Of a DNA stretch of 64,000 nt, positions 4,245 to 57,029 are shown one piece after another. The position numbers were made by a program, and so were the translations under genes. This stretch comes from Eledone cirrhosa. Taxonomy: Eukaryota. Location: contig OZ024741.1 in NCBI GenBank assembly GCA_964016885.1, positions 198,152,001 through 198,216,000 on the forward strand, given 5' to 3'. Under the pieces are notes generated by a model, which was given only the letters and a program-made list of their open reading frames with translations, had not been told where the DNA came from and did no database searches. How positions within the stretch are numbered: position 1 is the first letter of the stretch; each line of letters opens with the position of its first letter.

Positions 4245-4372
<128 letters not shown>

Positions 4373-4814: not shown

Positions 4815-5056
4815 AACCAACGGAACAGCCTGCTCGTGAAATTGACGTCTAATTCGCTTAGCATTTCACAGACACATATGCCATTTACGTAATTCTCAGA
4901 TTCAGCTTGGCACAGAGTTAACAAGGTTAGCCCTACCTTATTTTTTTCTAGGCGAGTGAACTAGAGCAACGTGAAATAAAGTGTTTTGCTCAAGGTCACA
5001 ACGTGCTGCCTGAAATTGAATTCACGACATTAACCACTAAACCACACGCCTTCACA
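4815..5056 (-). mobile_element. Degenerate tRNA-derived SINE
   Basis: aaataaagtgttttgctcaaggtcacaacg…gaattcacgac…taaccactaaaccacacgcc resembles a reverse-oriented SINE head and core seen in octopus repeats. Recognised from memory, not by search. Confidence 0.45.
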
Positions 5057-5498
5057 ATAAGAAGATTAAGAAGTTTCATAATTCTTAGCAAATACAACAG
5101 AAATAGATTTGTAATTATATTTTGCATCAAACATCTGAAGAGTTTTTTTTTAAATAACTTATAATTAATTTGCTATATACCTGTAGACACTCGATATATA
5201 TATATACATATGTATGTGTGTGTGCGTGTGCGTGTGCGTGTGCGTGTGCGTGTGCGTGTGTGTGTGTACATATTAGTGTTCACATTCGTGTCTGTGGTTT
5301 ATGCCACAAAAAAAATTTCAACAAAAAAATAGAGCTTGAAAAATAAGTGCTGGAGCCGATATGATTAACTGGGATCTAACATGTCCACAGTCTAATGACT
5401 CAAACCAGTAAAAGTGTACATGTGCATAGGCAATTTTTATACAAACAGTATTTTCGATAGATTGAATATTTTATGAATCTATATTTACAGTAAGCACC

Positions 5499-6590
<1,092 letters not shown>

Positions 6591-6939: not shown

Positions 6940-9900
6940 GTCGCCAACAAGATCGGGGCAGGCATGCGAATAGAAGGATCGATGAGACTGACAAAGCACG
7001 GGCTGCGCGTCTGGCAGAACAGAGGGAAAGAGACAGAAGAAGGAGAGATCATGAATAGGATGGTCGGAGAGCTGCGCGTCTGGCGGAACTAAGGGAAAGA
7101 GACAGAAGAAGGAGAGATCATGAATCCGGCGGTCGGAGAGCTGCGCGTCTGGCGGAACAGAGGGAAAGAGACAGAAGAAGGAGAGATCATGAATCGGATG
7201 CTCGGAGAACTGAACGTCTTTGCCAACAAACCATTAGGGATAGAGCAAGGACAGTTCAACGTCGTGACCTCTCTGCTGATGTTGGACAGATGAATAAGAT
7301 CTGTGTCTGTTGTCATGCAATGTTTTTTCATGGTTAAACTGCTAACCTTTTGCTGTATGAATGGAAAAGTCAGGTTGGGGTATCTGCAGCCTTTACCCCA
7401 GGAACTTCACAGTTTATTTAGTACTGATCAACCTAGGGCAACGAGTTCAGGAAGAACCTCAGACAATACAACTGCCTGTTCCAAATGACATCTTTTGGGG
7501 CCGAAGAAGTTCGTTCCTCAAGGAGTGGATGGAATCCTTCTATTGTTATTCATGGTCAAATTCACCATTACATCGGTTCCTTAACCCCTAATCCCAACGA
7601 ACAACCCCAATTTCTTTAAATTTACTTCTTGGATCCTCAGGATAGTGTTGATTTGAGGATCAGGATACTCCATAACGATGGCATTCAGCGCGACATAGTT
7701 GAATTATTGGAAATAATACTCAGACAATATAACCCTTACGTTGCTTCATTTCGAATAGCAAAAGAACAAATTAAAAATATTCCTGAGGCTTCGATTATTA
7801 TTGATCCTGATAGGAGACCAGCAATGGAACATGAGAGAAGATTCAATGCACAAACTGCAAACGAAGTTGCCGTTATTATACAAAACAACACCGAACTTGA
7901 AGGAAAAGCACGGCACATTGTGTTGAAAGAAAAAGGCGGACAATTGCAAATAATCTCAGAGTCCCATCGGTCTTATGACAGTTTGCAGTATGTTGTATCT
8001 TTTCCTTTTGGCGATGACGGATGGCATCATGAGCTGTTAATGAGCAACAAGAAGTTGATGCCAATGCGCTACTATGCCTATCGAATAATGAACCATGAGA
8101 ATGAATTCAACCAACTTCTCAGAGACGGTCGTTTATTTCAGCAATATTTGGTTGACATGGCTGTGAAGATTGAAGGAGATAGACTGCAATACATCCGAAT
8201 GAATCAAACATCATTGCGATCTACAACATACATGAGCCTTACTGACGCATTGAATGATGACGATTTTCGCAATATTGGCAGGCGAATCATACTCTCTTCC
8301 ACATTTGTCGGGGGACCGAGATATATGATGGAGCGATGCCAGGATGCCATTCTTCATCACAATGACATGCAATCCAAACCTATTCCTGAATCAGAAGCCA
8401 CATGACAGGCCAGATTTAATTGCCAGAGTATTTGATTTGAAGCGGAAACTGTTAAGAAAGTATCTTACTGGAGTAGATGGCCTATTTGGCAAGTGTATTG
8501 CTTACCTGCTGACAGCCGAATATCAAAAGCGAGGTCTTCCTCATGTGCACCGTTTGATATGGCTCAATGAAGCCTCTAAGCCCAGACCGCAGGAATATGA
8601 TAAATTTGTTCAAAACGAAATACCAGATCCAAACAAAGATCCAGAGGGTCATGAGATGGTGCTGAAGCACATGATCCACGGTCCGAATTGCTCTAACAAT
8701 TCGCCGTGCTGGAAAGATGGAACGTGCAGTAAGCGGTACCCTAAGCCTTTCAATGAATATACATTGTGTGGAGAGGACACTTATCCTGTGTACAGAAGAC
8801 GGTCTTCAGGAATGGGTGGTTCCCTACAATATGAAACTATTAAAACTGTTCAACTGCCACCTAAATGTAGATATGTGCTCTTCCGTGAAATCGATCAAAT
8901 ACGTTATCAAATATACCATGAAGGGCAGTGATCAGGCAATGTTTGGAGTGAACAGGGAAGATGAGATAACACAGTATTTAACAGGAAGATATATCGGTCC
9001 TTCAGAAGCTGTTGCCTTGGTACTTGGATTTCCAATTCATGAGAGAGAACTGGCCTTAGTTCGCCTTCAAGTCCATCTACCTGAGGAAAATCAAATCTTC
9101 TTTCGGGTCAATGCTGCTGTAAACAATAACATGGCTAAGACGACTCTGACTGAGTTCATGGATCTTTGCGATCGCGATCCGTTTGCAAAAACATTGTATT
9201 ATGCCGATGTCTCAAAGTTTTACACTTGGAGTAATAAGAGATGGGAAAGGAGAAAGGTGGGGAAAACAGTTGAGCAGTATCCAGGGATTTTTGAGCGAAC
9301 GTTTTGGGAGGAGTATACACTGTTTCTCCACGTGACCTGTATTATTAAGACTCCTTCTACATCACGTCAAAGGGCCAGTATCCTTCAACTCTTTGAAAAT
9401 GTGTGATGGAGAACTCCTGCCATTATTCAAAGACGTCTGCAGAGAGAAAGGTTTGCTTCAATCGGATGATCATTGGCAGCAGACTCTGAAAGATGCTGAG
9501 CGAACAAGGCTTCCCAAAGCCATGAGAGATCTATTCATCGTTCTCCTCACAAATACGGAAATTGACAATTCCAGTGCTTTATGGGTTCGATTTAAGCATT
9601 CGCTGTCTGAGGATTACCTTCAAATAGAAGCAAGGGCTACCAGGAACTCTAACCTTTTGATTAGCGAGAGACATTATGATCAATGTCTTCTGTATTTTGA
9701 AGACAAACTTAACGACCTGGGCAAAAGTCTTAGTGACTTTAACTTGCCAAGGCCAAATAATATTGTTGCTAATCAGGATAATCGCAATTTGGTGTTATTG
9801 CATGAATTGCAATACACCAGAGAAGAGCAGCGACGATTTGTAGAAGAGACGGAGCCTCTATTGAATAGTGAACAAAAACACGTGTATGACTTCGTTTGTA

Positions 9901-11990
9901 ACAGTTTAGAGACGAACACATCTGCATTGATTTTCATTGACGCTCCAGGTAGAACAGGAAAGACATTCCTGATTAACTTAATTCTTTCAAGTCAGGGGAA
10001 ATGCTGACGTGGCTATTGCTGTTGCGTCATCTGGCATTGTCGCAACACTGATGCCTGGTGGAAAAACAGCACATTCTAGGTTCAAAATACCGATAATAGT
10101 GAAAGAAAATGGTCTGTGCAACATTGATAAAAACTCAAAGACGGCAAACATCTTCCAGTATACAAGGCTGATTGTTTGGGATGAGTGTCCTATAATTCTG
10201 AGGGAAGGCTTCGAAGCTGTTGACCTCATTCTGCGACAACAATGAGGCATTCGGTGGAATTTTGACAATTTGCTGTGGCGATTTCCGTCAGCTTCTTCCG
10301 GTAGTGAAAAGGGGAAATGAAGCGGACGTGGAAAACGCCTGCATTAAAAAATCCTACTTATGGCGAAGCTTCAAAAGATTTCAGTTGAAGACAAACATGC
10401 GATTGGGTGGAGGAGCAGGATACTATTCACAGTCACTATTGGATATTGGAGAAGATAAGATATAAAAAAACTGAAAATGAGGAAATTATTTTGCCAAAAG
10501 AAATGGTTCTCCAAGCAACAACTATGGAAGAATGTATTGATTTCATCTACCCCTCATTCGACAATCCAGCTGAAGGGTTTTAGAACAATTGCATCTTAGT
10601 ACCTCTCAATGAAATGATGAGAAGCATCAATTCCACCTGTATTAGACGCTTCCCTGGAACCATAAAAGAGTACCGATCCTATAATTCTGTGAGTGATGGT
10701 GCCAATGCCATTCCTTGATTCGGTTGAACTATCAGGACTGCCACCACATAACCTGGAATTGAAAAAAAGGATCGCCAATAATTCTTATGAGGAACTTGAA
10801 TCCTCCAAGGCTTTGTAATGGAATGCGCATGATCGTGGAAGAACTGCACGACAATCTCATAGTAACAAGAATCAACACTGCTGCTTTCAGAAATGAGATC
10901 GTTATGATACCTAGAATAAGAATTAATCTATCCGAAGGTGAGGATATCCCTTTGCAGCGAAGCCAATTCCCAGTTCAATCGTGCTTCGCTGTGACTATTC
11001 ATAAAGCACAAGGACAAACTATTGGTTTATCTGGAACGACCTGTATTCCAACACGGTCAACTGTATGTAGCCCTTAGCCGCGGAAAACGAAAAGAAAATG
11101 TCAGAGTGCTTATGAAGGACACCCAGTCAACTAAGAATGTTGTTATCAAAAGCATTCTTTTGAACAAACTGTAACAGCGTAAATATGAGAAAATGTTGAT
11201 TCCGACGTCAGAAAATGAAAGGAAAAGAAAAAACTAAGACAAGTAAGAATAATTTCTTTCAAATTTTTGTAAATAAAACCAGCTTTTCATTAACATTGCA
11301 CATTTTTAAGCAGAAAAATCTTTCAGAACAAACAGTCAAGCATCCATAGAGATATAGAAAAAAGAATTTTGAAGTGGAGTGGATAGCTATTAGTGAAAAA
11401 TGATTTGATATTTTCTTTGTGAAAATACTTGTGAATAATACAGTGAAAAGACAAGTTTCGCGTAAATCGGACCACGGGTTCCCGAGATACGCGGGGGGTT
11501 TTTTCGGATACCTTTATAAATATTCAAATCAGCACATAATGGGAAAATACTTTGAAAGTAAGGTACCATTGAAATGTGAATACAAACGCAGATAGTGGTT
11601 GTGTGTGAGAGAGAGAGAGAGAGAGGGGGGGAGAGAGCTGGTGGTGTTGTTGAATGAAATTATGACAGGTGACTTCAAAGAATTGAATACAGCATTACTG
11701 TATCTAGCTTGAATTTGGTGACTCAATATTAAGTTATATGCATCTTATAACTTGTGTTAGGACAGGATGTATGTGTGTGTGTGTGTCTGTGACCAGTGTA
11801 TATAGGCCACAGACACCCACACACACAAACACATATATATATATACACATACATATACACACACACATACACGTATATATATATATTGGCTTTCCAATGT
11901 CATTTTACATTATATACATTTTGTGTATATTTTAATTATTTAAAAATTATTTTTAAGTGAACATGACCCAACGGGTCACGGGTGGTCTAG
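6940..11990 (+). mobile_element. Helitron (autonomous type, decayed); 5' end uncertain
   Basis: Fragmented RepHel coding region, a 3' hairpin tgaccc-aac-gggtca (11964-11978) and terminal CTAG (11987-11990) followed by T in (TA)n. Confidence 0.85.
7000..11163 (+). pseudogene. Helitron Rep (HUH, Y2) / PIF1-like SF1 helicase pseudogene, frameshifted
   Basis: N-terminal 69-bp (23-aa, STPR-like) repeats; CCMNGKV zinc motif; Rep motifs FITMTCNP, EYQKRGLPHVH and KYVIKY; helicase motifs DAPGRTGKT, IVWDE, GDFRQLLPVV and FAVTIHKAQGQT, spread over many ORF fragments. Confidence 0.93.
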
Positions 11991-18181: not shown

Positions 18182-18591
18182 CGTCGTCTCTATATATTCC
18201 ATTCCGCCGCCGATCCCGGGATCTCCTCCGCTAGCCTTTGGAGGAGATAGATTCCCACCAGGTCCGTCACCTGTGCGGAGTCATTCGACCCCATCGTAAT
18301 ATCGAAACTATCGGGTCTGTCCCTCCTTTCTATATTCATTTTAGTATGTATATATATATATATATATTTCGTTTCTGAATTTGTTTAGCAAGATTCTTTA
18401 TCTGAAATCGTGTGTTGAAACCGATATTGTTATACTTTGGGAGGGTCATGTTGCCAATAAGAAACACACGCACCAGTTGCTTTCACTTCAATTTATTATA
18501 TATTTATAAATTTATAAATTTACAAATCTACAAACTTATAAATTTCTGGTTGGTTGGTTGGTTCCACAACCAGATAGTTGTTTATATATAT

Positions 18592-18636
18592 AGTCATAGT
18601 CCTTTCGTCACACACTCTGTGACCTCTTCAGTGACT
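18592..18636 (-). ncRNA. Minimal type I hammerhead motif (mirror copy)
   Basis: Reverse complement of 18776-18820. Confidence 0.7.
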
Positions 18637-18775
18637 GGGGATTCCTTTCTTCGTTTCTGTGCCTTTTCTTTCTTCTATCCTACGCCATTTTGTTTCTGTG
18701 TGTGTCACACACACAGAAACAAAATGGCGTAGGATAGAAGAAAGAAAAGGCACAGAAACGAAGAAAGGAATCCCC

Positions 18776-18820
18776 AGTCACTGAAGAGGTCACAGAGTGT
18801 GTGACGAAAGGACTATGACT
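18776..18820 (+). ncRNA. Minimal type I hammerhead motif
   Basis: agtca-CTGAAGA-g-gtcaca/tgtgac-GAAA-ggac-TA-tgact. Confidence 0.7.
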
Positions 18821-19251
18821 ATATATATAAACAACTATCTGGTTGTGGAACCAACCAACCAACCAGAAATGTATAAGTTTGTAGATTTGTAAATTTATAA
18901 ATTTATAAATATATAATAAATTGAAGTGAAAGCAACTGGTGCGTGTGTTTCTTATTGGCAACATGACCCTCCCAAAGTATAACAATATATATATATATAT
19001 ATATACTAGAATGAATAAAGATGTCGTGTCTGAGAAAATTACAGACAGGCGCCTTATCGCCTTCAAAGAAAGATTCAAAGAAATAATTTCGAGCTCTTAT
19101 AAATTCAAAAACGAATGACATATATCTAAAAATATATCAAACATTAACAGGAGATAATTTGCTAAGAATGTAAGAAAATATAATTTCAAATGAGCAATAT
19201 ATTGAAATTTTAAAATATTAAACGCAAATACCTGACATTCATTAACTATTT

Positions 19252-21708: not shown

Positions 21709-24700
21709 AACTATGCCTGTAAATAATATTCTTCTTTCTTTCCCATTACCTTATCATGTTCCACATCACCCTTTTTTTTCTTTTTTTCTTTTTACTTCAA
21801 AAACCTTGTTTGTAAATAATATTATTCTTTCTTTCCCATTTCCTTAACATGTTCAACATCACATTACTTTCTCTCCAACATTTTATACCAATACAAATTC
21901 CCCCTTTGATAATGCATAAAATGCTGAAACCGGTAATAAACAATTATTAAATATATAAATAAATGCCATTGTTAATTAATTAATAAATTAACTAATACCT
22001 TAACACTTCACACAAAGTTAAATATTTTGTTTTAAACATTTTCTAACCCAGAAAAAAGAGAAAAAATAAAAGGAAAAAAAAAAATTTTTCTTCCTAATAA
22101 TCGTCTTTTTCTCCCTATTTTCATATATATATATTCCAACTCGTGTGCTCCTTCTCCATATTTTATAATTATTATTTACCCCCACACGAGATACAGAAAA
22201 TGCCAACTAAAACAAAAACAGACTCTACTCTCATTAACATCAATCAAGAGATACTCCAAGAACTACAAAAAATAAACTCTAATTTGTCAATACTCACCAA
22301 CAAACTTAATTCTACAAGTGAAGAAACAATCCCAAAATACACATCCTATGAAATCAACGACAATATCAACAACTTATGTGAAACAATAAAAACACATCTG
22401 AATAACAACACCAATCCTATTCAAGCAAACGTAAAAACACATGACACTAATACACTTACAACTTACGAAGTAAAAAACAAATTAATACCACAATGGTACA
22501 CATCTCTTAAAAACAGGAAATTCTCCTTTTGGAAGATGATACAAAATAATAACAAAGCGGAGATCTATGAAAAATGGATTCATTCATCCCCATTAATCCT
22601 TCCCCGCAAACTAAATCCATCCCAAACGAACCCGAGACACAAAGACGCCTCAGGGAAAGAATGGCACTTGATAACATAAAAACCGAAATTGAACTCCTTA
22701 AATTGAGAGCCCAAGCAAATGAAGATAGGATCAAATCAATCGACGATGAGATTAATCAAGCAATCATCAATAAAACCAAAGACACCACCCTAGAAAATAT
22801 TTCAAAACTAACTATGGTTAGAGGACTGTAATAAGGAAGAATTAAAATCTCTTCAACGCTTGGAAATAAACGAAACCTGGTTCTCTAACTATGAAACACT
22901 TTTCCAAAAAGAACACACACCCAAGAACCCCTTCATTAAAACCAAAATAACAAGAAAACCCAATCACCACCCAAACACTACACAACAACCAACAACAACA
23001 AAAAACAATACCTCCCCACATACCAAAAAAAGAGGGATCTCCTCGCCCCTACCTCCTACACCCACCACATAGCTACCACACGGATTCCCAAGCAACAAAT
23101 ATAGTAATAGAGAAACATCAGCTACAAGATAGCCACTACAACTTCTCTCCCACCAGGAGAAACCATAGAAACCCCCACACTTACAACCCCCCCTAACATC
23201 CCCACAAACCCACAACCATCATTACTTCCAACATAGAACCCAAAATACACAACTACCACACATGCCACATAGGGCCTCACAACCACACACCAACTATAAG
23301 GAAACCCTAATCTACCCTCCTCCACTAACCACATCCTACTACAACAACACCAAAGGGGACAATACAACCACACGAGACACCCTAACCACTACAACCAGCA
23401 TAACTACACACCATACAACAACAACAACAGCAGGACTCAATATAACCACACAAGACAACCCTACTACAACTACCACCAAGTCTACACACCCTACAACAGC
23501 AGGGCTCAACACAACCATACGATACAAACTAACTTCAACAACCACCACAACTACACACCCTATAACCACGTCCATCAAATCTACACACCCTACAACAACA
23601 GCAGGGCTCAATACAACCACACGATACAACCTAACTTCAACAACCACCACAGTTACACACCCTCTAACAACAACAGCAGGGGGCCAATACAACCATAAGA
23701 GACATCCAAACTTCAACAACCACCACAACTTCCGGAGTCATTTTTCAGACACAGGGTAACAAGATAACACAAAACACACAGGAGACACAAAATGTAATAA
23801 AAATCGTTAATTTAACCTCTAAAGAATTAACAACAGACCAAATCAAAATACTCTCCAAAGGTCTGACATTTACACCAACTCCCCAACAACCAAACTGCCC
23901 CGAAATGAAGGAAGACTCAGCGAGCAACTATACGACAAATCCAATGAGGATGACTCAATAGCCAGAAATAGAAGTAACTATACCCCACCAAAAGGCAAGA
24001 ACAAATTCCTCGATCAATTCTACGAACACATTACTAATTACCCATACCACCGCCTACACAGAGATAAACAAAAACCAAACCTAAGCAAAAAAAAATGGAA
24101 TGGTCTTAACAGTCTAAAGAACGACAAAACCCTAACAATCAAGGAGGCGGATAAAGGGAGTGCAGTAGTCCTTATGAGGACAGATTACTACACAACTCTA
24201 GTACTCTCAACTCTAGAAAACCAAACATATTACGAAAAGGCCCAACACTACACACAACAGAAAATAATGAGAAACCTAAAATCCCTAACAACCCTTTACA
24301 AAGAAGGCCTTACCGACAAGGAATACAACTACATCACCAATTTCAAAAGCAGAACCAGTCTTTTCTATGGTATCCCAAAGACGCACAAAAGCGAAGTAAT
24401 AGGCAAGGCCTGCAAGTAAGCTACAGACATTTACATCAATATACCCCCTCCTGATGACCTTAAATTAAGACCCATAATAGCAGGTACCACATGTGAAACC
24501 CACCGCCTAAGCAACTTCCTAGATATTCTGCTTAAATCTTTCCTAAAACACATAAAAAGCTTTATAAGGGACGACCTTGACATGCTCAACCACCTCCCAA
24601 CAACACTTAATAATGAACATACACTACTAGTAACCTTTGATGTCATCAATCTATATTCCAATATCCCACACAACCTAGGTAGAGAGGCAATACAATTCTG

Positions 24701-26535
24701 GCTTGAAAATTTCCCTAGTGAACTTCCACAGCGCATCCCTAAATAATTTGTGTTGGAGGGGGTCAAATTCATCTTGGAAAACAACTTCTTCGAATTCGAT
24801 GCCAAATACTACAGACAGAAATCTGGGACTGCCATGGGCACGAAAGAAGCCCCCTCATACGCCAACCTTGTCATGGGATATTTGGAAACCACTCTCAACC
24901 GCAAAGTCCTAGACAAATACGGTAACCACTTCTACCTACACATAGAAAAGATATCTGGACGACTGCTTCATCCTCTGGCATGAAAGTATAGAAAGACTGA
25001 GTTTTAAAACCTTCTAAATGGACTCAACACAAACTTACAATTTACAATGGAATACAGCCATGAACAACTCCCTTTCCTTGACATCCTCACCAAGAAAACA
25101 AACAACAAAATAGAAACAGACATATACTACAAACCCACAGACTCCAAACAATATCTTCCATTTAACTCGTGCCACCCTCGCCATACCAAAATGGCAATTC
25201 CTTATAACCTAGCCAGAAGGATCTGCACAATAGTTTCAGATAAATACACATGCTACACACGACTAGAAGAATTAAAGAACACACTTATCAGCAGAAAATA
25301 CCCACCATCCCTAATCAACAATGGATTCAAACGTACCCTAAAACTCAACATCTAGGAATTCAGACACCCCAAACCCAGGAATGAACCGCAACAGAAAACT
25401 CTACCATACATCTCCACACACAACCCCCTCAACAATGAGGCATTCAACACCATCCTCCAGAACATTCCTTTATTAAAAAGAGACCGAAGAATGAACAAAA
25501 TCCTCCAAACACACAACATCATGAAGAGCAAAAGACAACCTAAATCCATAAAAAACATCCTCACACAAGCCAAAATCCAACCAACCTTCACAATGAACCC
25601 TACAGTAAAAAAATGCAGAAGGCCCAACTGTGGTATATGCATAAATTTAATAGAAGGTTCAACATTCCATTTTAAACAAGGACAACATTTCACAGTTAAA
25701 TACAACTTTACATGTGCATCTGAAAACCTAATCTATGTTTTGACCTGCTCAGGTTGTCGACAGCACTACATAGGACAGACAAAAAAAAGCCTCCGACAAC
25801 GTATGACCGTCCATAGATCACTAATCAAAATACAGGAATACAGAAAGATTGCTTTTAGTGAACATATCGCTAATTGTACACCTAACCAACATCCAAACTT
25901 AAACATTTTTCCCCATTTACAAATTCATAGACAACACTTCTTTCATCCGTCGTACCAATAAGGAAACGTACTTCATTAACAAATTCCAACCTCTACTTAA
26001 TGGACTAAACCTCGGACTAAACTAATACTGGAACGAACAAGGAACCAAAGCCCGATCCCTATGTTCTCTAAAGAGTTACCTCCCTTACACCCTACCTAAT
26101 GCTTTTTCTTATATAAATGAATTACCCCCTCTCATTTCTCTCTCCCATACCTGACCACCCTGAATTGCCTCCCCCTGCATATTAACTCTCTAAAAAGGGA
26201 AATCATATCAAACCCCAGACTATTATTTGCCTCCATTATGGACCAACCAAGAGCTCTTGCCATAATAACACATTTTGAAGCGCTTAACCTCAAGGACTAT
26301 GCCTGTAAATAATATTATTCTTTCTTCCCCACTACATTATCATGTTCCACATCACCCTTTTTTTTTCTTTTTTTCTTTTTACTTCAAAAACCTTGTTTGT
26401 AAATAATATTATTATTTCTTTCCATTTCCTTAACATGTTACATTACTTTCTCTCCAGCATTTTATACCAATACAAATTCCCCGCTTTGATAATGCATAAA
26501 ATGCTGAAACCGGTAATAGACAATTATTAAATATA

Positions 26536-26745: not shown

Positions 26746-28304
26746 TTTCGTTTCTGAATTTATTTAGCAAGATTCTTTATCTGAAAACGTGTGTTGCAAC
26801 CGATATTGTTATGCTTTTGGAGGGTCATGTTGCCAATAAGAAACACACGCACCAGTTGCTTTCACTCCAATTTATTATAAATTAAAGAATTTATTAATTT
26901 CCTGTTGGTTGGTTGGTTCCACAACCGGACGGTTGTTCATATATTGTCAAAGTTCTTTCGTCACACATTCTGTGACCTCTTCAGTGACTACGGATTCTTT
27001 TCTTTGTTTTTGTGCCTCTCCTTTGTTCTGTCCTACGCCATCTTGTTTTTGTGTGTGTTGTGTGCTTAGTTTGCGCATGTGTTACATCCGGGTGTCTGTG
27101 TGTTTGAACATTTCGGGGGTCCGTATGGCTCTGGTCCACCCGTTCCATCTATCTGTGTTGGTTTTCTTGACCATTGAGGTAATGGTAGGTGATCTGCCTC
27201 TTGCTGGTCTTGTAGGGTACAGGTTGCTAAGGTCATATGTATCTAGATAATCATTACTATAGGTAAGTTTAAGTAGGAGTCCCAGCTCACTGGTATCAAT
27301 CCCACGGAACAAATTTTGGAATAGAATAGAAAGAACTAGGAATAAGGTTAATAGAATAAACTCATGGTATGATAGCAATAAATACCAGAGTGTAATGTTC
27401 ATCAATACAACCCCGAGAGATGAATTATCTTACAAATTTAGAAGGGCTCTAGATAAACATAAACTCAATATTAAGATAGTAGAAAGACCAGGTACCTCCA
27501 TAAAAACACTTATTAGCAATGCATAACCTTTTCAAAGACCTCCCTGTATAGATAAGACATGTATAATCTGTAAACTAAGCCCCCATATTAACTGTAAAAC
27601 TAGAAATGTAGTATATAGCAACAGATGTACTGAAGGGCAATGTAGAGATAAGAATATAGTGTACATAGGTGAGACAGCTCGTAGTATAGGAGAACGGATA
27701 AATGAACACTGGCGAGAGCTTCAAGATATAAAAGAATCATCTGTACTCCACGAACATGCTAAAATAGAACATAAGGGTAAATTAGAGAACATAGAAATAA
27801 AAATAGAATCTACACACAGAAAAGACGCAATGTTTAGTCAAATCACAGAGGCAATAAACATAAATGAACTCCAACCAAAATTAAATAGAAAACATGAATG
27901 GAATAGCAACATCACAACTTACAATTAAGGACAAAATGAAAACACACACACATAGAACAAACAACCAACTAGTAACATGTAAATAAACAAATAAATAAAC
28001 AAATATAAACACACACAGACATCCGGATGTAACACATGCGCAAACTAAGCACACAACACACACACAAACAAGATGGCGTAGGACAGAACAAAGGATAGGC
28101 ACAAAAACAAAGAAAAGAATCCGCAGTCACTGAAGAGGTCACAGAATGTGTGACGAAAGAACTTTGACAATATATGAACAACCGTCCGGTTGTGGAACCA
28201 ACCAACCGGAAATTTATAAATTCTTTAATTTATAAATTGGAGTGAAAGCAACCGGTGCGTGTGTTTCTTATTGGCAACATGACCCTCCCAAAGCATAACA
28301 ATAT
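26746..28304 (+). mobile_element. 5'-truncated Penelope-like element with inverted pLTRs around a GIY-YIG remnant
   Basis: Inverted repeats about 26803-27105 and 28007-28304; ORF 27659-27928 YIGETARSIGERINEH…HEH…EAININELQPKLN; HHRs at 26946-26988 (-) and 28126-28168 (+); same pLTR family as 18368-18988. Confidence 0.88.
28126..28168 (+). ncRNA. Minimal hammerhead motif (mirror copy at 26946-26988, minus strand)
   Basis: gtca-CTGAAGA-ggtcacagaatgtgtgac-GAAA-gaac-TT-tgac. Confidence 0.65.
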
Positions 28305-29007
28305 ATATATATATATATTAGAAAGTGAGGTTTTTTTTACAAAATGAAAAATAACCGAGGTGTCCTACACGAGTGAAAGTATAAAGAAAAAGAGATGAAA
28401 TCGAAAATGCAACTGAAGTCTTATTTTTTTTTAAACTATATATATTTATTTGGTTCCTTTACCGGTTTCGCAGTTCTTCTGCTTTTCAAAAGGTGAGTTG
28501 AGATGGAGGGTCTGTGGTTTTTCTCACATCTGGTTGGTCTCTGAATATTACTTGTTTTATATGGAAAAAGTGGCTCGAAATTCCAGGTTTTTCGAGAAGT
28601 AATTTGATTGGTTTGTCAATAATTATAATAAATTTCGCGCCAGTTCGCGTTACAATAGTTCTTCAAATAAGAGAGGGGGTTGTCACAGGTTGTTTTTTTC
28701 ATATATGAGTGTTTGAATTTCTTTTTACTTGAAAAAAGGAGGCTCACGAAGGCTTTTTTTTGGTTGGTTATAAATGAAATTTGGCTGTCACGTGAACAAG
28801 TTTTTATTACATTTTTGCGCCCTTATTTGGAAAACTATTCTGTAGTCTTTATAGTGAATGTTATGACAATGGAGAGATAGTGGTCAAGAGAAAAGGGATT
28901 GGGAGAAATGTTCTGGTTCAGTGAATATGGCCAGCTCGCCGGGGTGTCAGAGTTCAGATTTTCTATTGAGACTAAAGATATGTATGTTTATTTGTGTGCT
29001 TGTGTGT

Positions 29008-29338: not shown

Positions 29339-29383
<45 letters not shown>

Positions 29384-29386
<3 letters not shown>

Positions 29387-29434
29387 TTCTACAGGACCAG
29401 AACTGTTTCACTCTCCAGAAATCATCAGGAATCT
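29384..29434 (-). ncRNA. Type I hammerhead ribozyme
   Basis: agattc-CTGATGA-tttctggagagt-GAAAC-agttctggtcct-GTA-gaatct. Stem I is a perfect 6 bp. Confidence 0.85.
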
Positions 29435-29634
29435 GGGCATCAAAAAACAAATACGGTATCTATAGGTCTCCACAAGTGGCAGGAGAGGGTGGGGAGTGGG
29501 ATGGGCGCAGGTCATTGGCCGACAGAAAAGGGAACCCATCAAAAGCCAACTCTACAAAGCTATAGTTTATTTCTACCAACCCTTGTCTTTAGAGTAACAA
29601 AGGCAGACAGAAATCCATAAACAGGTTCCGGACG

Positions 29635-29926
29635 GCACACCATTCCCTGTCACCAGGTCTCTCCCAAGCCAACAGATGTCTATAAGATCAGTGGGGGGCC
29701 AGTCATGGCAGATAGAATTAAAGGAAAGGGAGACTCTTCAAAAGCCAAATTCACCAAGGTTCTACCAAGTGACAAAGGCCCAGAGAATTCTGCAGACAGA
29801 CCCAAAACACTGAGCGCATATCTTACAACCATCCCCGAACTTCCCCCAAACTAATCAACCACATGCCAAAAATCAACAGACACATTCACAAAAAAACACA
29901 CTCACTCACACACCCGCGCGCAACCA

Positions 29927-29982
<56 letters not shown>

Positions 29983-30773
29983 TAAACATATATATATATG
30001 TATGGTGCTTTTTCCTTATATATGTGTATGTGTGTGTATATATATATATGTATGTGTGTGTGTGTGTATGTATATGTATATATTTGTTTATGTATATATA
30101 TATATATATATGTGTGTGTGTTTGTGTGTATGTGTGTGTGTATATGTATATATATATATATGTGTGTATATATGTGTGTATTATATATATGTATATATAT
30201 ATATATATATATGTATGTATATATATATATATGTATGTGTATATATATGTATATGTATGCACATGTATATTTGTGTGTATGTATGTATGTGTGTGAGTGT
30301 ATATATATGTGTATATATGTGTGTGTGTATATATATGTGTGTGTGTATGTATATGTATATGTATGTGTATATATATATGTGTATATATATGTGTGTATAT
30401 ATATATATATATAGATATAAATATATTTATATATGTGTGTGTGTTTCCATGTGTGCACATGTGTATGTGTATGTGTGTCCATGGCCGCGCGCGAGTGTGT
30501 GAGCGAGTGCACTTCCCTGTGAATGTGTCTGCCGACCCCTGGCACACAGTTGATCAGTCCAAGAGAAGCCCGAAGACAACTGTAAGATATGCACTCAGCA
30601 CCTTGAATCTGTCCACAGAATTCCCCAAACCCTTGTCACTTAGTAGAACCTCAACGAACCTAGCTTTCAAAGAATCTCCCCCTCCCCCAACCCCATCCAC
30701 CATGACTGACCCCCCACTGACCCCACAGACATCTGCTAGCCCAAGAGAAACTTAATGACAAGGAATGGCATGC
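29635..30773 (-). other. Long G-U-wobble-rich RNA hairpin (arms 29635-~29995 and ~30415-30773)
   Basis: Manual ungapped alignment of 256 nt gives 78 differences, all transitions, 77 of which form G-U pairs on the minus strand. Confidence 0.92.
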
Positions 30774-31276
30774 ACACAAATAAACATACATATCTTCAGT
30801 CTCAATAGAAAATCTGAACTCTGACACCCCGGCGAGCTGGCCATATTCACTGAACCAGAACATTTCTCCCAATCCCTTTTCTCTTGACCACTATCTCTCC
30901 ATTGTCATAACATTCACTATAAAGACTACAGAATAGTTTTCCAAATAAGGGCGCAAAAATGTAATAAAAACTTGTTCACGTGACAGCCAAATTTCATTTA
31001 TAACCAACCAAAAAAAAGCCTTCGTGAGCCTCCTTTTTTCAAGTAAAAAGAAATTCAAACACTCATATATGAAAAAACAACCTGTGACAACCCCCTCTCT
31101 TATTTGAAGAACTATTGTAACGCGAACTGGCGCGAAATTTATTATAATTATTGACAAACCAATCAAATTACTTCTCGAAAAACCTGGAATTTCGAGCCAC
31201 TTTTTCCATATAAAACAAGTAATATTCAGAGACCAACCAGATGTGAGAAAAACCACAGACCCTCCATCTCAACTCA

Positions 31277-31314
31277 CCTTTTGAAAAGCAGAAGAACTGC
31301 GAAACCGGTAAAGG
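31277..31314 (+). ncRNA. Hammerhead variant with U3:A8 core (mirror copy at 28456-28493, minus strand)
   Basis: cctt-TTGAAAA-gcag/ctgc-GAAAC-cg-GTA-aagg. All three stems are intact. Confidence 0.7.
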
Positions 31315-31383
31315 AACCAAATAAATATATATAGTTTTAAAAAAAATAAGACTTCAGTTGCATTTTCGATTTCATCTCTTTTT

Positions 31384-31433
<50 letters not shown>

Positions 31434-33628: not shown

Positions 33629-34321
33629 ACGTACATATGTACATAGATACACATATGTGTATTTTCACACACATACATACATCCATTCATACATACGTTA
33701 TGTTACTCTCCTTTTATAAAATATTGATTATTTTTTATTAAGGTACTGACGTCTGTGTACGTGTGTGAGTGTATGAGTGTGTGTGTGTGTGTCTGTGTGT
33801 CCAACATTCATGTTCTTCATAAATACATTAGTAATAAATAGTATGTGAATCTTCTATCAAAATTCCATTTACGTTGTATGCTATATAGAAACCATTTTAT
33901 GGAACCAAGTTTAGTACATATTTGGTACATATTTTATCGCCTCTAAAACGGTAAAGAGTACAGCTATACTTGGCGGTATCGAACTTAAAAATATGTAAGC
34001 CAAATACTGCAAAACATTTTGTCCAAAGCTCTACGGTTTCTGCTAACTCATTGTTCACTTAAAGTGACTTTTGCCATGAACTTTAACTCGAATTTCGGAT
34101 TACTACTCTCGAAGTTTTGACTGAAAACACTGCTTTCTTCTGATGAGACACACAAATTTCACTCAATTTACCGGAGAGAAAAATAATAAATTATTATGTT
34201 TTATTCATTTTTTGCGGTATTAGTAGTATAAATGAAATGACATTGTACTCAACATACATACATACATACATACATACATACATACATACATACATACATA
34301 CATACATACATACATACATAC

Positions 34322-37152
34322 ACACATCTAAAACCACGCAATCAAGATACAAACAGAAAGCCTGAACCAGCGTGGATGCGAAATTTAAAAACCAAAATTT
34401 TGTCCCTGAGACGAAGTATCTCACACATCGCAGTCGTTATGAAATGCAACATAGAGAGCAACTTCACACGACACCAGGAAGACCTAAAGAAAAAGTTAGA
34501 GAGACGATTTGGAGATACAAAATTTAAAACTTTGAACTCCAAATTACACCAGTTGAAACAACAACTCACAGCTACAACCAGAAAGACTAGAATATAAGTC
34601 AACAGCACATAAACGACAAGTGCTAAATAGATTGTTTGCCAGAGATCCTAAATCAGTTTATCGCAGCTTCGGTGGCAAAAGCTCAATCCCTGTAAACGAC
34701 ACCCCTTCAAAAGAACAGGTTGAGAGCTACTGGAGATCTGTATGGGAAACGGATGACGGATTCAACAGACAAGCTAATTGGCTAAAAGAACTGGAACAGG
34801 ACTACGGCCAACATGTCCAGACAAAACAATATGACATAGATGAGTCAATACTGGAAACAGCTCTACAGAAAATGTCGAATAGGAAATCACCAGGCCCAGA
34901 CCTCATTACAGGATACTGGTTGAAGAATTTCACTTTCTATCGGCAAGATCTCATACGGCTGTTTACAGAAACCATTAAGGGCACACAAGAACTGCCCAGA
35001 TGGTTATCAAGTGCCACTACTCTCCTCATTCCCAAAAATAGCCAAACCACCCTTGCCAAAAATTACCGCCCAATTGCCTGCCAAAACATCATGTATAGAT
35101 TATATACTGGGTGCCTTAACCTGTTCTTACAGGATCACTGTGCTACCAACAACATCATAACACCTGAGCAAGCTGGTGTAAAGAGGGAGGTGTGGGGTTG
35201 CATAGATCACCTACTAACTAACAAAATGATTCAGGAAAAAACAACAAAGAATCGCAGAAACATGACTGTCGTGTGGCTGGACTATCAAAAAGCATTTGAT
35301 AGTGTACCTCATGGGTGGATTATTAAGGCTTTACAGTTAGCTAAAGTCCCACAACCATTGGTAGCTGCTGTTGAACGCCTGACCAAGAACTGGTACACCA
35401 ATTTGATCCTTAGAGAAGGGCATCTTTCAGGGTTATAGCTTGTCAGTGCTACTCTTCGTTCTCTCACTGAATCCACTATCTTACCTACTCAGGAAACAAG
35501 GTGGACAAAGAAGTGGGCCCAGAAGTATCTCCCATCTTTTCTTTGTTGATGACCTGAAGTTGTATGGGCCAAATATCAATGACATCAAGAAACAATTGGA
35601 CCTCATTACACAATTTTCAACCGACATCAAAATGAAATTTGGTGAGTCCAAGTGTGCATATTTGGCAGTAAAACGTGGAAGAGCTGTGCCCTCCTCTAGA
35701 AATCTAGAGATGAACGGCCTGACAATACAACCTCTGCAGTCAGGTGACAACTACAGATATCTTGGACAGGATGAGAATGTCAGATATGATGGACACATAA
35801 ATAAGGAGAGAACCAGAACTGAATACCTCAGAAGAGTAAAGAAAATATGGTCATCAGAACTGTCAGCATACAACAAATACATTGCCCACAATACTTATGC
35901 TGTGCCAATTCTAACGCCAACATTTGGCCTACTGAACTGGTCATTGAAAGAACTAAGTGAGATGGATGTTAGAACTCGAAAACTTCTCAGTGTTACTGGC
36001 AACTTTAACATCAATGGTGATGTGGATAGGCTATACTTCTCACGCAAGGAAGGTGGCCGGGGTCTAAAATCAATATTAACAACATATGAGACCCGGATAG
36101 TAACACTGAAGCAACACCTTCAACAGAGGAAAAAGGTTGGCAACCATCTTGCCCAGGTTTATGAGCATGAAAAAAGAAATATCATTAGAATAGCGACTGA
36201 TCTGGAGGAGAGATATGGAATAAAGCCTGATATAAATCTCTCACCCAGAGAAATCGGAAGATCCTATTCAATGTTCAAACAAGATAAGAAAATTGACCAA
36301 TTTACAGAAAAAGTTGTGCATGGATACTTGAGGCGTAAAACACAGACCATAGAGGGGATAAACCACTCAAAAAGCCTGGCATGGAGTTCCGACAAGTTTG
36401 ACATCACACCTTGAGGGATATCTCTATGCAATACAGGAACAAGAACTCCCTACCAAATATCTGCTGCACAAAAGAGGAGGGCCAGCAGCTGACAATAAAT
36501 GTAGGCTATGTAAAACAAAGATCGAGGATGTAAGCCACATTGTTGCCAGCTGCGAAAGAATGTCATCTCGCTACTACCTCCCCATGAGACACGATGGGAT
36601 AGCTAGAACCATCTGGAACGCACTTCGGAAAACAAAATTAACAACAAACGAGGAAGAATATATTGAGACAGATGGCACTAAGGAATACTGGTGGAACCTG
36701 AAAATAAAAACTGCCACCAAATTAAAGCACAACCGGCCTGATATTGTAGTTTGGGACCACACATTGAAAACGTGTTCTGTTGTGGAGATCAGCTGCCCAC
36801 TTGATGTAAACGTTGTCAGAAAAATACAGGAGAAGGAGGACATCTACGGACCATTGATGAGGAGTTTACAAATCCAGTATCCAAGATACACCTTTAGCTT
36901 CATACCCATCATTATTGGTGCTACGGGTTATATACCAACCCGCTTGGACCAAAGTATGACTGAACTTGGATTTGCGGACAAAAAGCGCAGCTCCCTAATT
37001 CATAGTCTGCAAATGGCTGCGATAGCTGGCACCTTCAAAATTTGCAAAACATTCTTGCGATTCAAGGGATGACAATTTCTTTTCTTTTACAACCTTGCCA
37101 CCAGGAAGGTGGCCGGTCAAAAAAATATACTCGAAATTAAGAGAAAGAGAAA
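34322..37152 (+). mobile_element. 5'-truncated R4/Dong-like non-LTR retrotransposon (RT, CCHC, restriction-like endonuclease) inserted in (CATA)n
   Basis: KSPGPDLI, NYRPIAC, WLDYQKAFDSVPH, HLFFVDDLKLY, GGRGL, CRLC…HIVASC, RHD, NRPDIVVWD…VEISCP. Two frameshifts seen. (TACA)n on both sides. Confidence 0.9.
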
Positions 37153-37666: not shown

Positions 37667-37737
37667 TGAGGTACATGGGACACGAACCCACATATTTGGT
37701 TTGCCGGACCAATGTGTTACCATTACACCAACACGCC
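37667..37737 (-). other. tRNA-like SINE head
   Basis: Minus strand has A-box-like tggtgtaatgg and B-box-like ggttcgtgtcc. It sits within a local inverted repeat (about 37595-37690 and 37925-38025). Confidence 0.35.
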
Positions 37738-41673: not shown

Positions 41674-41737
41674 TAGCCACCTGGTGTTTGCATAGCTACG
41701 GGTTCCTAAAACCGTATTTCTTTGGAGATACGAAATT

Positions 41738-41821
<84 letters not shown>

Positions 41822-41836
41822 CATATATATATATAT

Positions 41837-41939
<103 letters not shown>

Positions 41940-42042
41940 AATTTCGTATCTCCAAAGAAATACGGTTTTAGGAAGTCGTAGCTATGCAAACACCAGGTGG
42001 CTAACGCCCTCTGGTGATGTCCAGCAGAATCAAAGGGTAAAA

Positions 42043-52140: not shown

Positions 52141-53983
52141 AAGAATGAGAAATAAGATAGATTGGCGGGACGGGCGGGTTGGAATTGGAAAAAATGTCTT
52201 TAGATAAAAAATAATTGTTTCTACGTTAGGCACAAGGCCAGCAATTATCCAGTGCATTACTGGTACTTTATTTTATCGACCCCGTAAGGATGAAAGGCAA
52301 AGTCAACCTCGGCGGTATTTGAACTTTAGATAAAAATAATAAGTCCATTCATGTTGACATAAAAATAACAGGTCCATTCCTGTTGACATCTCTTGGAAAA
52401 CTGTTGATGCTGGCGTTTTGTGTATGACTTTTTTTTTAGAAAAGTGGATGATGGAGCACGTCTACCTGAAATGAAAAAAAAACATTTTGTAAAAAGAGCT
52501 ATACTTGTGCACGTACGTAAGCATGTGTGTGTGTGTGTGTGTTATTATACGTCCGTACGAAGCTAAGAAGATATGTGTTTGTATATGTAAGTAAAAGAGT
52601 GTGTGTGCATGTAAGTACGAAGCTATGAACAAAAGTATGTTAATATAAGGTAGTGTATGTGTGTATACAGAGCTGTGAAGGGAAAAGTGAAGTGTGCATA
52701 TTTCGTCTGTATTAGTTGTAAGAGTAGATGTTTATGATCATGAGTGAGCGATGGGAATCTAGGGGGAAAGGTACAAGCGCGTGTGATAATGGACGAGGTA
52801 TTAAATAAATTGGGGAGGTGAGTTGAGTCCAAGAGGGGAATAGGACTCAAGGCGGTGAATCAGACTCTGTTCAGTCCTGGTGCGTGAGGCCTGTGATCCA
52901 TGATGTAAAAGGACACCCAGGACTTAGACATGTAGGGAAGAATGACCAGGAGAACAGAAATGACGGGCGACAGGTGTATCCAAACCGAGTAGTATGTCCC
53001 TCAAATGCTCAGCAAAATGGTCTGCCATACGGCGTCCCGTTTGTCCGATGTATAAAGACCCGCAAAGGGAACACCGGAGGACATAGACAACGTGGGTGGA
53101 CGTGCAGGTGAAAGAGTGGCAGATATGGAAAGACCCGTTAGGGCCTGTGAGAGTGGTGAGAGTGAAAATGAAGGGACAAGTGTTGCAGTGAGGACGAGAA
53201 CAAGGATGAGAGCCGGGTCGAGTCATGGGAGAGGACGAGAAGGAACTGCATACCAGGAGATCGCGGAGGTTACGGGTGCGCTTAAATGCAGTAATGGGTG
53301 GGTTTGGAAAAAAGCGAGAAGTGACGGGGTCAGAGAGGAGAGTGCGGAAGGAACAGAGGATATGTCGCCGGACTGGTAGGGTGATGGGTGGTAGGTAAGA
53401 GGGAAATGAACGCGGGTGTTGGGAGGGTGCGGGTGAGGTGAGAGGGCTGTGGTACGGTCTGTTTCACGGGCGCGGATGAGAGCAGCTTGGATCAGGGTGG
53501 GTGTATATCCATGCTGGAAGACGCGGGAAGCCATGTGAAGGGAATAGGTTTCGAAATCGTCGTCCTGGCTACAGAGCCGACGAAGACAGAGGAATTGGGA
53601 ATAGGATATGGTGTGTTTGGTGTGGGTTGGATGGGAGGAGGTGAAGTCCAGGTAAGAGTAGGAGTCTGTTGGTTTATAGAAGTTGGAAGTAGAGAGGGTG
53701 TGGTGAGAGTGATTAATAGATAGAGTGATATCTAGAAAAGGGGGGAGAAGAATCAGAGACAGGGTCGGTGAAAGTGAGAGCAGGGTGGAAAGATAGATTT
53801 CTTTATTAACAGGATGGAAAGATAGGACAAAAGTAAGAAAGCAGTCGAGCTGTTCTCGTGTTAGACAGGTGGCGCCGATACAGTCGTCGGTATAACGACC
53901 GTATGGCTCAGGAGTCGGTCCAGCGTACTGGGAGAAGATCTGAGCGTCAAGGTAGCCAACAAACAAGTTGGCATAGTTTAGAC

Positions 53984-54843
53984 CAAAGATTCTCAACGGG
54001 GGGCATATGCACCCCCCGGGGGGCGTTTCGGAACTCCAGGGGGGCGTTTGGGAGCAAGTTCGCGTTAGGGGGCCGTTTGGAGCTGGGGGAGGGAGGGTTG
54101 GGGGGGCTTAAAGGGAGCACTGGAAGGCTCTTTATTTTGGTAAGTTTTATAAGCCATATTTGTATGTCTTTGAGACAGCCAGTGTGAATGCATTTGAATG
54201 AGCTTGCAGACAGCATAACTATAGTCTGGCCGCAGCTGTGAGCAGGTGTGCAGGTGTGCAGGCATGTCAGGTAATTGAGACGTTAACCGGTAATTGAGAT
54301 CCTAAAAATGGAAAAACCCACAGTCAACTGGGTCAAAGACACTTTGAGTGCAGCCAGTTAGAATCTTATCTTTCCTTCACCGATAACAATGTATTTCATG
54401 TCTGTAATTATTGATTCAACCGTAACGAGTTAACACTATGTAGATCTATTTTATTCCCTATTGTATAAATAATATTACAAATAAAAAAAAGAAAAGAAAA
54501 AACAGAAGCGAGTAGCCCACACATCTAGGACGACATACAACACATAATCAGATAATACACACATCTAGGACCACATACAACACATAATCAGATAATACAC
54601 ACATCTAGGACCACATACAACACACAATCAGATAATACACACATCTAGGACCACATACAACACATAATCAGATAATACACACATCTTTGGAATATTGTTA
54701 ATCAATTTTTTAGTAATCTATTGATATAAAAATCAGTAGTATATTGAAAAATGGAAAAATAGGGTGGCGTGGGGGGGGGGGGGCGTTTCGTGATTTCGGG
54801 GGACAAAAGGAGGCGTTTGGCCTAAATGGGTTGATAACCTGTG
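53984..54843. mobile_element. hAT-like MITE inserted in the Penelope RT
   Basis: Imperfect TIRs caaagattctcaac / gttgataacctgtg; degenerate 8-bp TSD gtttagac / gtttaccc; splits the RT motif MGTRMG|NYANL; internal 40-bp repeat x4 (54518-54686). Confidence 0.8.
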
Positions 54844-57029
54844 GTTTACCCCCATTCTGGTTCCCATCGCTACCCCCAGAGACCTGCTGATAGAATTCAC
54901 CCGAAAAGGAAAAGCCATTGAGGGTCAGAACAAGCTAAGCCAGGCGGAGAAGAGTGGTAGTGCTGGGGTAAGGGATAGGGCGTAAGTCTAAAAAATGTTG
55001 GAGAGCGCGGAGGCCGTCCTCGTGAGGGATGCCGGTATAGAGAGAGGTGATATCCAGGGTAAAGAGAAGGAGAGAGGGACCAGGGGGGGAGGAGAAGGAG
55101 TTGAAGAGTCTAAGGGCATGATTGGTATCGTGGATGTAGGAGGGAGGAGGGGATGAGTTGGTGGATGGTGGGGGACACGAGTTGTTGGGAGCCAGGAGTG
55201 GGGTCGGAGGATAAAGGGCGGTAAAAAAGGGTATTGTGAAGCTGCTGGCGGAGAGCCTCAGCCCTATAGAGGTCAACGTTCCAAACCACCACAGCGCCAC
55301 CTTTGCCAGCGGGTTTGATGACAATGTCATCGCGACGCCGAAGGTTGCGAAGTGCGGAGATCTCAGCCTGCGTGATGTTAGAACGTCGAGAATACTGGTG
55401 GAAACGGAACCGATTCACTGTATGCCGGCAAATATCGACAAAGGAGTCGAGGGTGCTGAACTGGCCAGAGCTCGGCGTCCAATTTGATTGCCGGCGACTG
55501 AGGCGAGTGAAGTCATCCGTCTGTGATGATGATGGCGTGTCGTGAAAAAAAGCTTTCAGCTTTAATCGAGGGAAGAACCCTTCAATATCGGCACGTGTGC
55601 GAAACTCGTCGCAGGTAGATGTGTTGGTATAAAACGCAACCCACGGGCGAGGAGGAAGTGCTCAGCTTCGGAGAGTGGTAGGTCCTGGGGTATGGTGACT
55701 ACAGTGCAAGGACGTGAGGGAGTGAAAGGGGCGGAGGCGGAGGCGTTAAGGTGGTTGGGCAAAGCGTGTGCAGATTCAGTGGTGGGGAGAGGAAAGGGGA
55801 TGGTAGGTGACGGAATAGAGGGGTTATGGTTGGAGGTGATATGAGTATGGGTGGTGACCGCAGGCGGGGAGCGGAGTGAGTGGAGTTTGTGGTTTTTTAT
55901 GGAAGTGATGAAATTGAAAAGGAGGCGATTAAGGTAAAAGATGAATTAGATAATGGATTGGGCGAGGAAGGGGTGGTAAGTGGAGGAGAGATGGAGGTAG
56001 GCCTTGGGGAGATCTCGGTCGAGAGAACGGATTTTCGCGAGAGTTGATCGAATAGTCACTCGCATGAGCTGGTGAGGGGAGTGGGTAAGGATGGGTTCAG
56101 TGGTGGGAGCAGAGTAAGAGGTGGGTGTAACTTGAGGCCAAACCTCGGGGAATGAGGTGTGGTGGAGACAGCGACTTATAAAGGTAATGTGACTATTATA
56201 TCGTGTTTTGGTGACGATGAGGTTGGAGAGATGCAGGGAGGATTGGATGCATATAGGGGGTAGAGGTTGCAGGAAGTGCTTGAGAATGGAATGGAGAAGG
56301 CGGAGAAAAGATTTGAGATTGGGCATATTGAAGGTACTAGGGTGGGAGTGAAAAATAGACGGTGGTGTAAGAATATTGTAGTAGAGGAAAAGTGATAGAG
56401 AGTCGTGGAATACTTAAATGCAAGAAGCAAAGAAAATTTCAATGATACGAAAGATTTCCTGGTGGAAGTTCAGGTATACTTCGGGTTGGTATCCAGTTTC
56501 GGGGTGAAAATCCAATTTGAACATCCAACGAATTTGAGAGGTCCACGTAAAGCGTTGATATATCTGTGAGAGTGGTGAGGGTGGAAATGATGGGACAAGT
56601 GTTGATGAGAACAAGGATGAGAGCCGGGTGGAGTCATGGAAGAGGACGAGAAGGAACTGCGTACCAGGAGGTCGCGGAGGTTGCGGGCGCGCTTAAATGC
56701 AGTAATGGGTGGGTTTGGAAAAAAGCGAGAAGTGACGGGGGTCAGAAGAGAGGGTGCGGAAGAAACGGAAGCTATGTCGCCGGAGTGGTAGGGTGATGGG
56801 ATGGTAGGTAAGAGGGAAATGAACGCGGGTGTTACATGTACACTCCACTTTTCCTTTCACTGCTCTGTATACACGCATACACACCCTTGTATTAACATAC
56901 TTTTGCTCATAACTTCGTACTTACATACACACACACTCTTTTACTTATATATACACACATTTCTTCTTAGCTTCGTACGGATGTATAATAACACACACCC
57001 ACACACACACACATGCTTACGCACGTCAC

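Follow-up and report, generated by a model that had tools for sequence, protein, structure and literature searches.

Apparent A-to-I editing marks in genomic copies of a Penelope-like fold-back in Eledone cirrhosa

The window analysed here, a 64-kb stretch of Eledone cirrhosa DNA (64,000 nucleotides), contains a fold-back whose two arms differ almost exclusively by A-to-G changes on one strand. We are highly confident that this locus and similar copies elsewhere in the genome carry A-to-I marks that were copied from RNA into germline DNA, and we consider it probable that, at the window, the route was a hyper-edited hairpin RNA that entered as a new insertion of a Penelope-like element (PLE). 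An earlier note on the window had proposed that hyper-edited RNA was fixed in DNA here; the polarity of the changes, their neighbour context, their dependence on pairing and their recurrence in the genome all agree with this proposal. None of the outcomes that the note had named as contrary to it (G/C in the family consensus, a wobble pattern common to all copies, lack of an ADAR-like neighbour bias, an assembly artefact) was obtained.

The fold-back and its element family

Positions 29635-29890 align without gaps with the reverse complement of 30518-30773, and our recount returned the figures given earlier: 78 of 256 nt differ, 77 of the differences have one polarity, and there are neither transversions nor indels. 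By class, the mismatches between the arms are 44 A/G, 33 C/T and 1 G/A, and in an RNA of the minus strand 77 of the 78 are G-U wobbles. The claimed inward extension of pairing was also found, the same diagonal being still polarised to ca. 29990. For the minus strand, RNAfold predicts a single long duplex of ca. 330 bp (-701 kcal/mol as a raw folding energy).

The sense arm (29382-30003, minus strand) corresponds to the 3′ UTR/pLTR end of a young PLE and would, in the inferred RNA, make up the 3′ portion. The arm starts at the inner insertion end of the family, beside a (TA)n microsatellite (29341-29381) that we read as the left half of the target site; the presumed right half is a second (TA)n run at 31391-31430, and nearly all family copies adjoin (TA)n. 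The unpaired loop (30004-30410, minus strand) consists of microsatellite-rich PLE 3′ UTR in inverted orientation and serves as an unedited internal control. The antisense, or "upside-down", arm (30411-30773, minus strand) would be the 5′ part of the RNA and is truncated at 30773.

Four other inverted repeats of the window had been put forward as unpolarised controls, and class counts bear this out. Listed as minus-strand G-U, plus-strand G-U and transversions, the mismatches number 0/0/3 at 18424, 2/1/4 at 26803, 1/0/2 at 28380 and 3/1/3 at 38669 (38670 in the earlier note). A pure-microsatellite repeat at 41674-42003 scored 16/2/2, which indicates that simple repeats can give a skew. A second PLE pLTR family is present as near-perfect unedited fold-backs (18424-18988, 26803-27113 and 28001-28304), with a hammerhead-like core recognisable by eye near 28129-28158.

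A search of the 3.0-Gb assembly with the left arm gave 41 matches, the best of 2,078 candidates, and the best non-self match was 87% identical. Twenty-eight of the 29 non-self loci align ungapped, and each of these copies has 0-4 differences from their majority, as expected of a young family. The hammerhead region alone has 20,871 matches genome-wide. Longer copies run via a microsatellite-rich stretch into a 555-aa frame (locus L073) in which RT-type motifs are visible by eye; a C-terminal GIY-YIG match is weak (E 0.001, below the curated Pfam cut-off), and a Pfam search of the frame for an RT family gave no match. It is these longer copies that, as the earlier note had supposed, link the element to PLEs and identify it, as far as can be judged from sequence, as the 3′ UTR/pLTR of a Penelope-like retroelement, with the minus strand of the window as the sense strand. 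In L073, that half of the ORF which encodes GIY-YIG is duplicated in inverted orientation (2122-5114); this would give a long coding-region duplex, in which polarised mismatches were not seen.

Family copies end at two positions ca. 65 nt apart, beside (TA)n, resembling the optional tail between two reverse-transcription starts that is described for PLEs in the available part of PMC11167929. A short unedited copy with the same PLE 3′ end, including tail and hammerhead, lies at ca. 860-990 of the window. Head-to-head fold-backs are a common product of insertion in this family: close inverted pairs number 18 among the first 100 listed of the 20,871 hammerhead-region matches, and in L027/L028, a fold-back free of edits, the palindrome is perfect for 526 nt.

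A type I hammerhead-like motif of the pLTR occupies 29385-29433 on the minus strand. The core words CUGAUGA, GAAAC and GUA and helices I-III can be recognised by eye, and the core words are unedited. The earlier note had called the hammerhead (29384-29434) intact; this stands for the core, and the rest of the description does not, there being four edits in helix II and loop III, no score reaching the Rfam gathering threshold for 29385-29433, and a structure that is not the minimum-energy fold (z 0.58). We therefore use "intact" in the sense of a core that is present, and regard the motif as a candidate for cleavage. Several other edited copies have changed core adenosines, which favours a template that can do without an intact ribozyme core and is in line with the finding, in the portion of PMC11167929 at hand, that hammerhead cleavage is dispensable for PLE insertion in vitro.

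Elsewhere in the window, five regions (7620-11077, 22101-25961, 34241-37072, 52924-56413 and 60967-63366) have motifs of mobile elements; we take them to hold PLE ORFs in fragments, an RT of LINE type, an RTE-like RT whose frame of 799 aa is open, and what is left of a Helitron-like Rep/helicase. The sole Rfam match in the window is tRNA-like (37667-37737, minus strand, 47 bits). BLAST against a phage collection gave no match.

Direction and neighbour context of the changes

At every one of the 77 polarised sites the family majority is A or T, and the changes are consequently A>G and not C>T. Set against this majority, the changes in the left arm are 33 T>C plus 1 A>G; those in the right arm, on the minus strand, are 44 A>G. 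Over the whole alignable arms, A has become G on the minus strand at 118 of 274 adenosines (ca. 43%) and there are three other differences, i.e., A>G makes up 118 of the 121 differences. Both arms are affected, with 64 of 162 adenosines changed in the sense arm (29384-29935) and 54 of 112 in the antisense arm (30475-30773). The wobble pattern is absent from the 28 family copies, which removes the suggestion that it is a family-wide selected structure. Such a structure and C-to-T decay were both rejected as candidates on the basis of the A/T majority, the uniqueness of the edited right-arm pattern in the assembly and a C>T control search described below. The earlier note had also seen possible C-to-U pressure in an internal duplicate at 29520-29600; this falls away, since T is what the family carries at the positions in common, which makes these bases edits too.

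ADARs favour adenosines preceded by U or A over those preceded by C or G, and their preference for a 3′ G is often weak in long duplexes. At the locus, the edited fraction was 47/75 (63%) after U, 51/95 (54%) after A, 10/51 (20%) after C and 10/53 (19%) after G. This 5′ bias is strong (chi2 p ~1e-8) and ADAR-like, as had been claimed. No bias was seen on the 3′ side, 24 of 53 adenosines before G being edited as compared with 118 of 274 overall (p 0.46). Depletion after a 5′ G is an ADAR trait according to the accessible text of PMC2873906 and PMC8586724. Context statistics from arms that had been picked by a forced pattern were left out of the evidence.

The edited right arm (30449-30773, 325 nt) matches one contig in each of two public runs, X1 and X2, with 0 differences, which bears on the concern that the locus is an assembly artefact; runs of small share were left aside. 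The two runs represent one sample, possibly the assembled individual, of unrecorded kind and of a size typical of whole-genome data; their contigs argue against assembly error and not for fixation in the population. Neither the edited left arm nor the outer-repeat junction was seen among the listed X1/X2 rows; these come from filtered, shortened tables, and we do not take the left arm to be absent on their account. Beyond the right arm both contigs continue into unedited family sequence and not into the outer repeat. We attribute this to graph ambiguity, because three ordinary copies share the single last change and the unedited continuation; for the same reason, a different allele was dropped as an explanation.

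Edited copies elsewhere in the genome

The genome was searched with a pattern that required ca. three of six T>C changes in the hammerhead region. With this T>C-forced pattern, 15 loci, the window among them, accounted for 19 matches; its antisense version gave 4 matches, and the C>T control pattern gave 0 matches in the same genome search. Two loci that matched, L091 and L098, were dropped since numerous further sites set them apart from the family. With these removed and L047, L051 and L100 added, there are 15 edited loci besides the window, scattered over many different contigs: 5 primary mini-hairpins, 6 fold-backs, 3 single arms and L100. L047 and L051 were met among 30 loci chosen by an unrelated motif. 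Detected edited copies amount to ca. 0.1% of hammerhead-region matches, a lower bound given that L051 was missed by the T>C pattern.

In the mini-hairpins, edits of G-U polarity are found in both arms: 11-12 + 11 in L084, 8 + 6 in L080, 6 + 4-5 in L090, 3 + 3 in L047 and 3 + 2 in L051. Their partner arms, which lie outside the pattern used for finding them, contain 27 A>G among 31 substitutions. Orientation is informative in three cases (the window, L047 and L051), and in each of them it is the PLE sense strand that is edited. Of three mini-hairpins seen to be nested within longer PLE copies, two are edited.

The six edited fold-backs carry the same edits in both arms. This might be read as proof of a single RNA molecule; the argument is weakened by unedited fold-backs, which are perfect palindromes as well, and a previously edited source copy would explain identical arms equally well. 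Four loci, L105 (2525-3045 and 7234-7822), L109 (4911-5111), L081 and L094, have identical T>C sets in both arms, confined to the hammerhead region, and a common A>C variant suggests that this lineage propagated after editing.

A different arrangement is seen at the L100/L104 fold-back (4229-4623 and 5789-6391; ca. 336.568 Mb on contig C4), where only the antisense arm is edited (35 A>G and 1 G>A). By 5′ neighbour, the edited fraction there is 17/30 after U, 13/33 after A, 5/18 after C and 0/17 after G (Fisher p 0.001 for the last), and 14 of 25 adenosines before G are edited. Editing of one arm is not accounted for by a single hairpin RNA copied from end to end.

L106 (4730-6200) and L107 (4969-6075) are sister composite insertions that combine a PLE mini-hairpin with a SINE-like segment. 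On the same strand, this segment has 31 A>G changes in L106 and 15 in L107, of which 14 are common and 17 and 1, respectively, are private; the overlap fits editing in two rounds or, just as well, sister transcripts edited at the same hot spots. L107 also contains a second polarised hairpin of another family, in which 17 of the 25 differences from a relative are A>G. A masked inverted-repeat scan of 119 sequences (548 kb, partly redundant), with 188 alignments in all, returned 21 polarised rows, corresponding to 7 distinct hairpins, and 79 unpolarised rows with at least 5 mismatches; it missed L084 and is thus not a sensitive screen.

Separate insertions, too, share sets of edits. These observations allow, tentatively and at somewhat less than even probability, for a heritable mutation cycle of ADAR and PLE reverse transcriptase in the octopod germline, in which fold-backs that undergo transcription and re-mobilisation are often hyper-edited, and edited copies move once more and take up further edits; the shared sets may also be hot-spot coincidence. 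Under such a cycle, other repeats on a shared RNA would be edited too, and palindromes could turn into G-U hairpins that pair only as RNA. A role of ADAR in defence, also suggested earlier, is not supported here: edited copies are as rare as stated above and some seem to have propagated.

Boundaries of editing, route into DNA and known systems

Editing of the left arm reaches ca. 250 nt outward of 29635, through the hammerhead, with 29 of 81 T changed to C in 29384-29634, a segment that has no partner arm at the locus today. We infer from this that the duplex of the hairpin RNA was originally longer and that the locus is a 5′-truncated copy. Editing thus read is confined to paired RNA. Within the 407-nt loop, there are 123 T in the favoured context and only 5 C, and ten unedited copies have 3-10 C across the corresponding 411 nt. 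The unpaired 3′ tails of other edited copies have 0/70 and 0/101 T changed.

An outer inverted repeat of ca. 620 bp joins the upstream flank (28380-29002, plus strand), a different high-copy repeat and the source of the duplication, with its unedited inverted copy (30769-31390, plus strand), which is joined to the truncated arm. Between the two halves there are 2 substitutions and 1 indel, besides a single mismatch at the junction. The lack of editing in this repeat indicates that it was added at the DNA level, outside the edited RNA. The join at the truncated arm has 2 nt of exact microhomology (4/5 if imperfect). The duplicated flank begins ca. 340 nt upstream of the target site, which is an unusual finish for a PLE insertion.

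The following sequence of events would produce the locus. A fold-back with two PLE 3′ ends placed head to head would have been transcribed in the germline, and ADAR would have deaminated 40-48% of the paired adenosines in both arms of an RNA duplex of at least 600 bp, with the loop spared. PLE reverse transcriptase would then have primed at (TA)n, started just 3′ of the hammerhead and, reading inosine as G, copied the sense arm and the loop as well as a portion of the antisense arm; the 3′ boundary and the target are observed, and the enzyme is presumed. Synthesis would have stopped at 30773 and been followed by a microhomology join to the inverted DNA copy of the flank, a structure that is present at the locus, in an order that we suppose. 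As an outcome, I-U pairs would now be fixed as G-U: the RNA hairpin persists, and the DNA palindrome is down to 70% identity. The same process would operate at low frequency elsewhere in the host genome. That the enzyme was an ADAR is deduced from the strand, the context and the dependence on pairing. The host encodes the machinery that the earlier note had presumed for a coleoid: its genome has 12 A_deamin exon matches, and the ADAR2 deaminase domain shares 95% identity with its Octopus vulgaris counterpart, which puts the host among the octopods.

Alternatively, though in our opinion this is unlikely, the cDNA of an edited transcript of the locus itself overwrote the resident fold-back in place, by recombination or RNA-templated repair, and the distal end of the right arm afterwards gave way to the outer inverted duplication. 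One pattern search of the assembly for an unedited parent with the same arm junction matched the window alone, as an overwritten parent would predict; a parental junction elsewhere could also be hidden by slippage of the TA run or be absent from the assembled haplotype. L100 may be a further case of this kind, its arms being near-identical but for the edits (1 other difference) and one arm edited, as after partial conversion. At the window, however, the edited tract goes as far as the usual insertion end of the family next to (TA)n, the opposite end shows truncation and a microhomology join typical of retrotransposition, and the 250 nt of edited left arm lack a partner, all of which agree better with a new insertion.

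Error-prone DNA synthesis without RNA editing, by a polymerase-eta-like activity or through RT misincorporation under dNTP imbalance, is largely refuted and very improbable. Polymerase eta leaves a WA>WG signature, which the 5′ U/A preference resembles, and the absence of a 3′ G preference is also compatible with it. Yet such synthesis should have hit the loop as well, where the 123 hot sites show no excess of C, and the tails, where 0/171 T are changed; nor would one expect a purity of 118/121 at a rate of 43%. Equally improbable is deamination of adenine on DNA, with ADAR or a related enzyme working on a single-stranded DNA intermediate that folds back or, within an RNA:DNA hybrid, on its DNA strand. 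ADARs do edit DNA in model RNA:DNA hybrids (PMC12925331, in its available part), and the loop would likewise be spared in a DNA hairpin. The first-strand cDNA, however, is the plus strand, and in each arm it is the minus, RNA-sense strand that shows A>G.

The view that no editing took place (a GC-rich ancestor that decayed by C-to-T change, a G-U structure of the family under selection, or an assembly artefact) can draw on the missing left arm and outer junction in the X1/X2 rows and is the least probable of all, in the face of the A/T majority, the empty C>T control, a unique right-arm pattern found exactly in two runs and similar loci on many contigs.

A-to-I editing is treated as non-heritable; the copies described here point to its entry into the inherited genome via a retroelement, in a host group that comprises the animals best known for heavy editing. 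As fossils, the genomic marks would record how active and how specific ADAR was in the germline, in a form readable from DNA alone, and they may be a route to G-U-rich hairpin loci. Hyper-edited genomic copies can also confound calls of RNA editing in repeats. In the open full-text literature, we came across no account of endogenous Penelope copies with fixed ADAR marks and no paper that treats Penelope, hammerhead, ADAR and editing jointly (prior art may exist elsewhere); a term search of the obtainable text of a 2026 preprint on animal retrozymes found ADAR unmentioned.

Known PLEs, as described in the available text of PMC3846280, PMC11167929 and PMC4209133, are alike in having an ORF with RT and C-terminal GIY-YIG, a hammerhead near the end (at the window, a hammerhead-like motif), an optional tail, AT-rich targets and head-to-head palindromes; those portions make no mention of ADAR editing. 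The edits serve as a strand marker for Penelope replication and favour a sense RNA template starting near the hammerhead. The three informative cases, a small number, speak against the antisense template proposed in PMC3846280, where, in the part seen, the sense-versus-antisense question is left open.

ADAR1 restriction of LINE-1 (PMC5224506) is similar in that an ADAR acts on the life cycle of a retrotransposon. In the accessible part of that study the restriction is deaminase-independent and editing of L1 RNA was not found, whereas at the window the deaminase footprint itself is inherited.

A counterpart is APOBEC DNA editing of LTR retrotransposons (PMC4866542 and PMC2873906, in the portions available), which likewise leaves clustered, strand-specific and context-biased marks in genomic copies, recognised against unedited relatives. 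APOBEC marks are G>A, arise by deamination of cytidines in cDNA and occur in vertebrate LTR elements, while those described here are A>G and depend on RNA pairing; the sense-strand G>A pattern expected of APOBEC is not what the locus shows. In the same portions of the APOBEC survey, other mismatch clusters were very rare, the G>A signal was absent in invertebrates and non-LTR elements were unscreened; G>A-centred surveys of LTR elements would miss marks such as these, which may be the natural counterpart of APOBEC editing.

The precedent is A-to-G hypermutation in avian retroviruses (Rous-associated virus as well as avian leukosis virus; Hajjar and Linial 1995 and Felder et al. 1994, as cited in the available part of PMC12925331). 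There, too, nearly half of the adenosines of an inverted repeat were changed to G and recovered after reverse transcription, with an origin of ADAR type. Those viruses are exogenous, whereas the copies reported here belong to an endogenous, germline, non-LTR-type Penelope element of an invertebrate, recur at at least 16 loci and come with loop, tail and flank controls.
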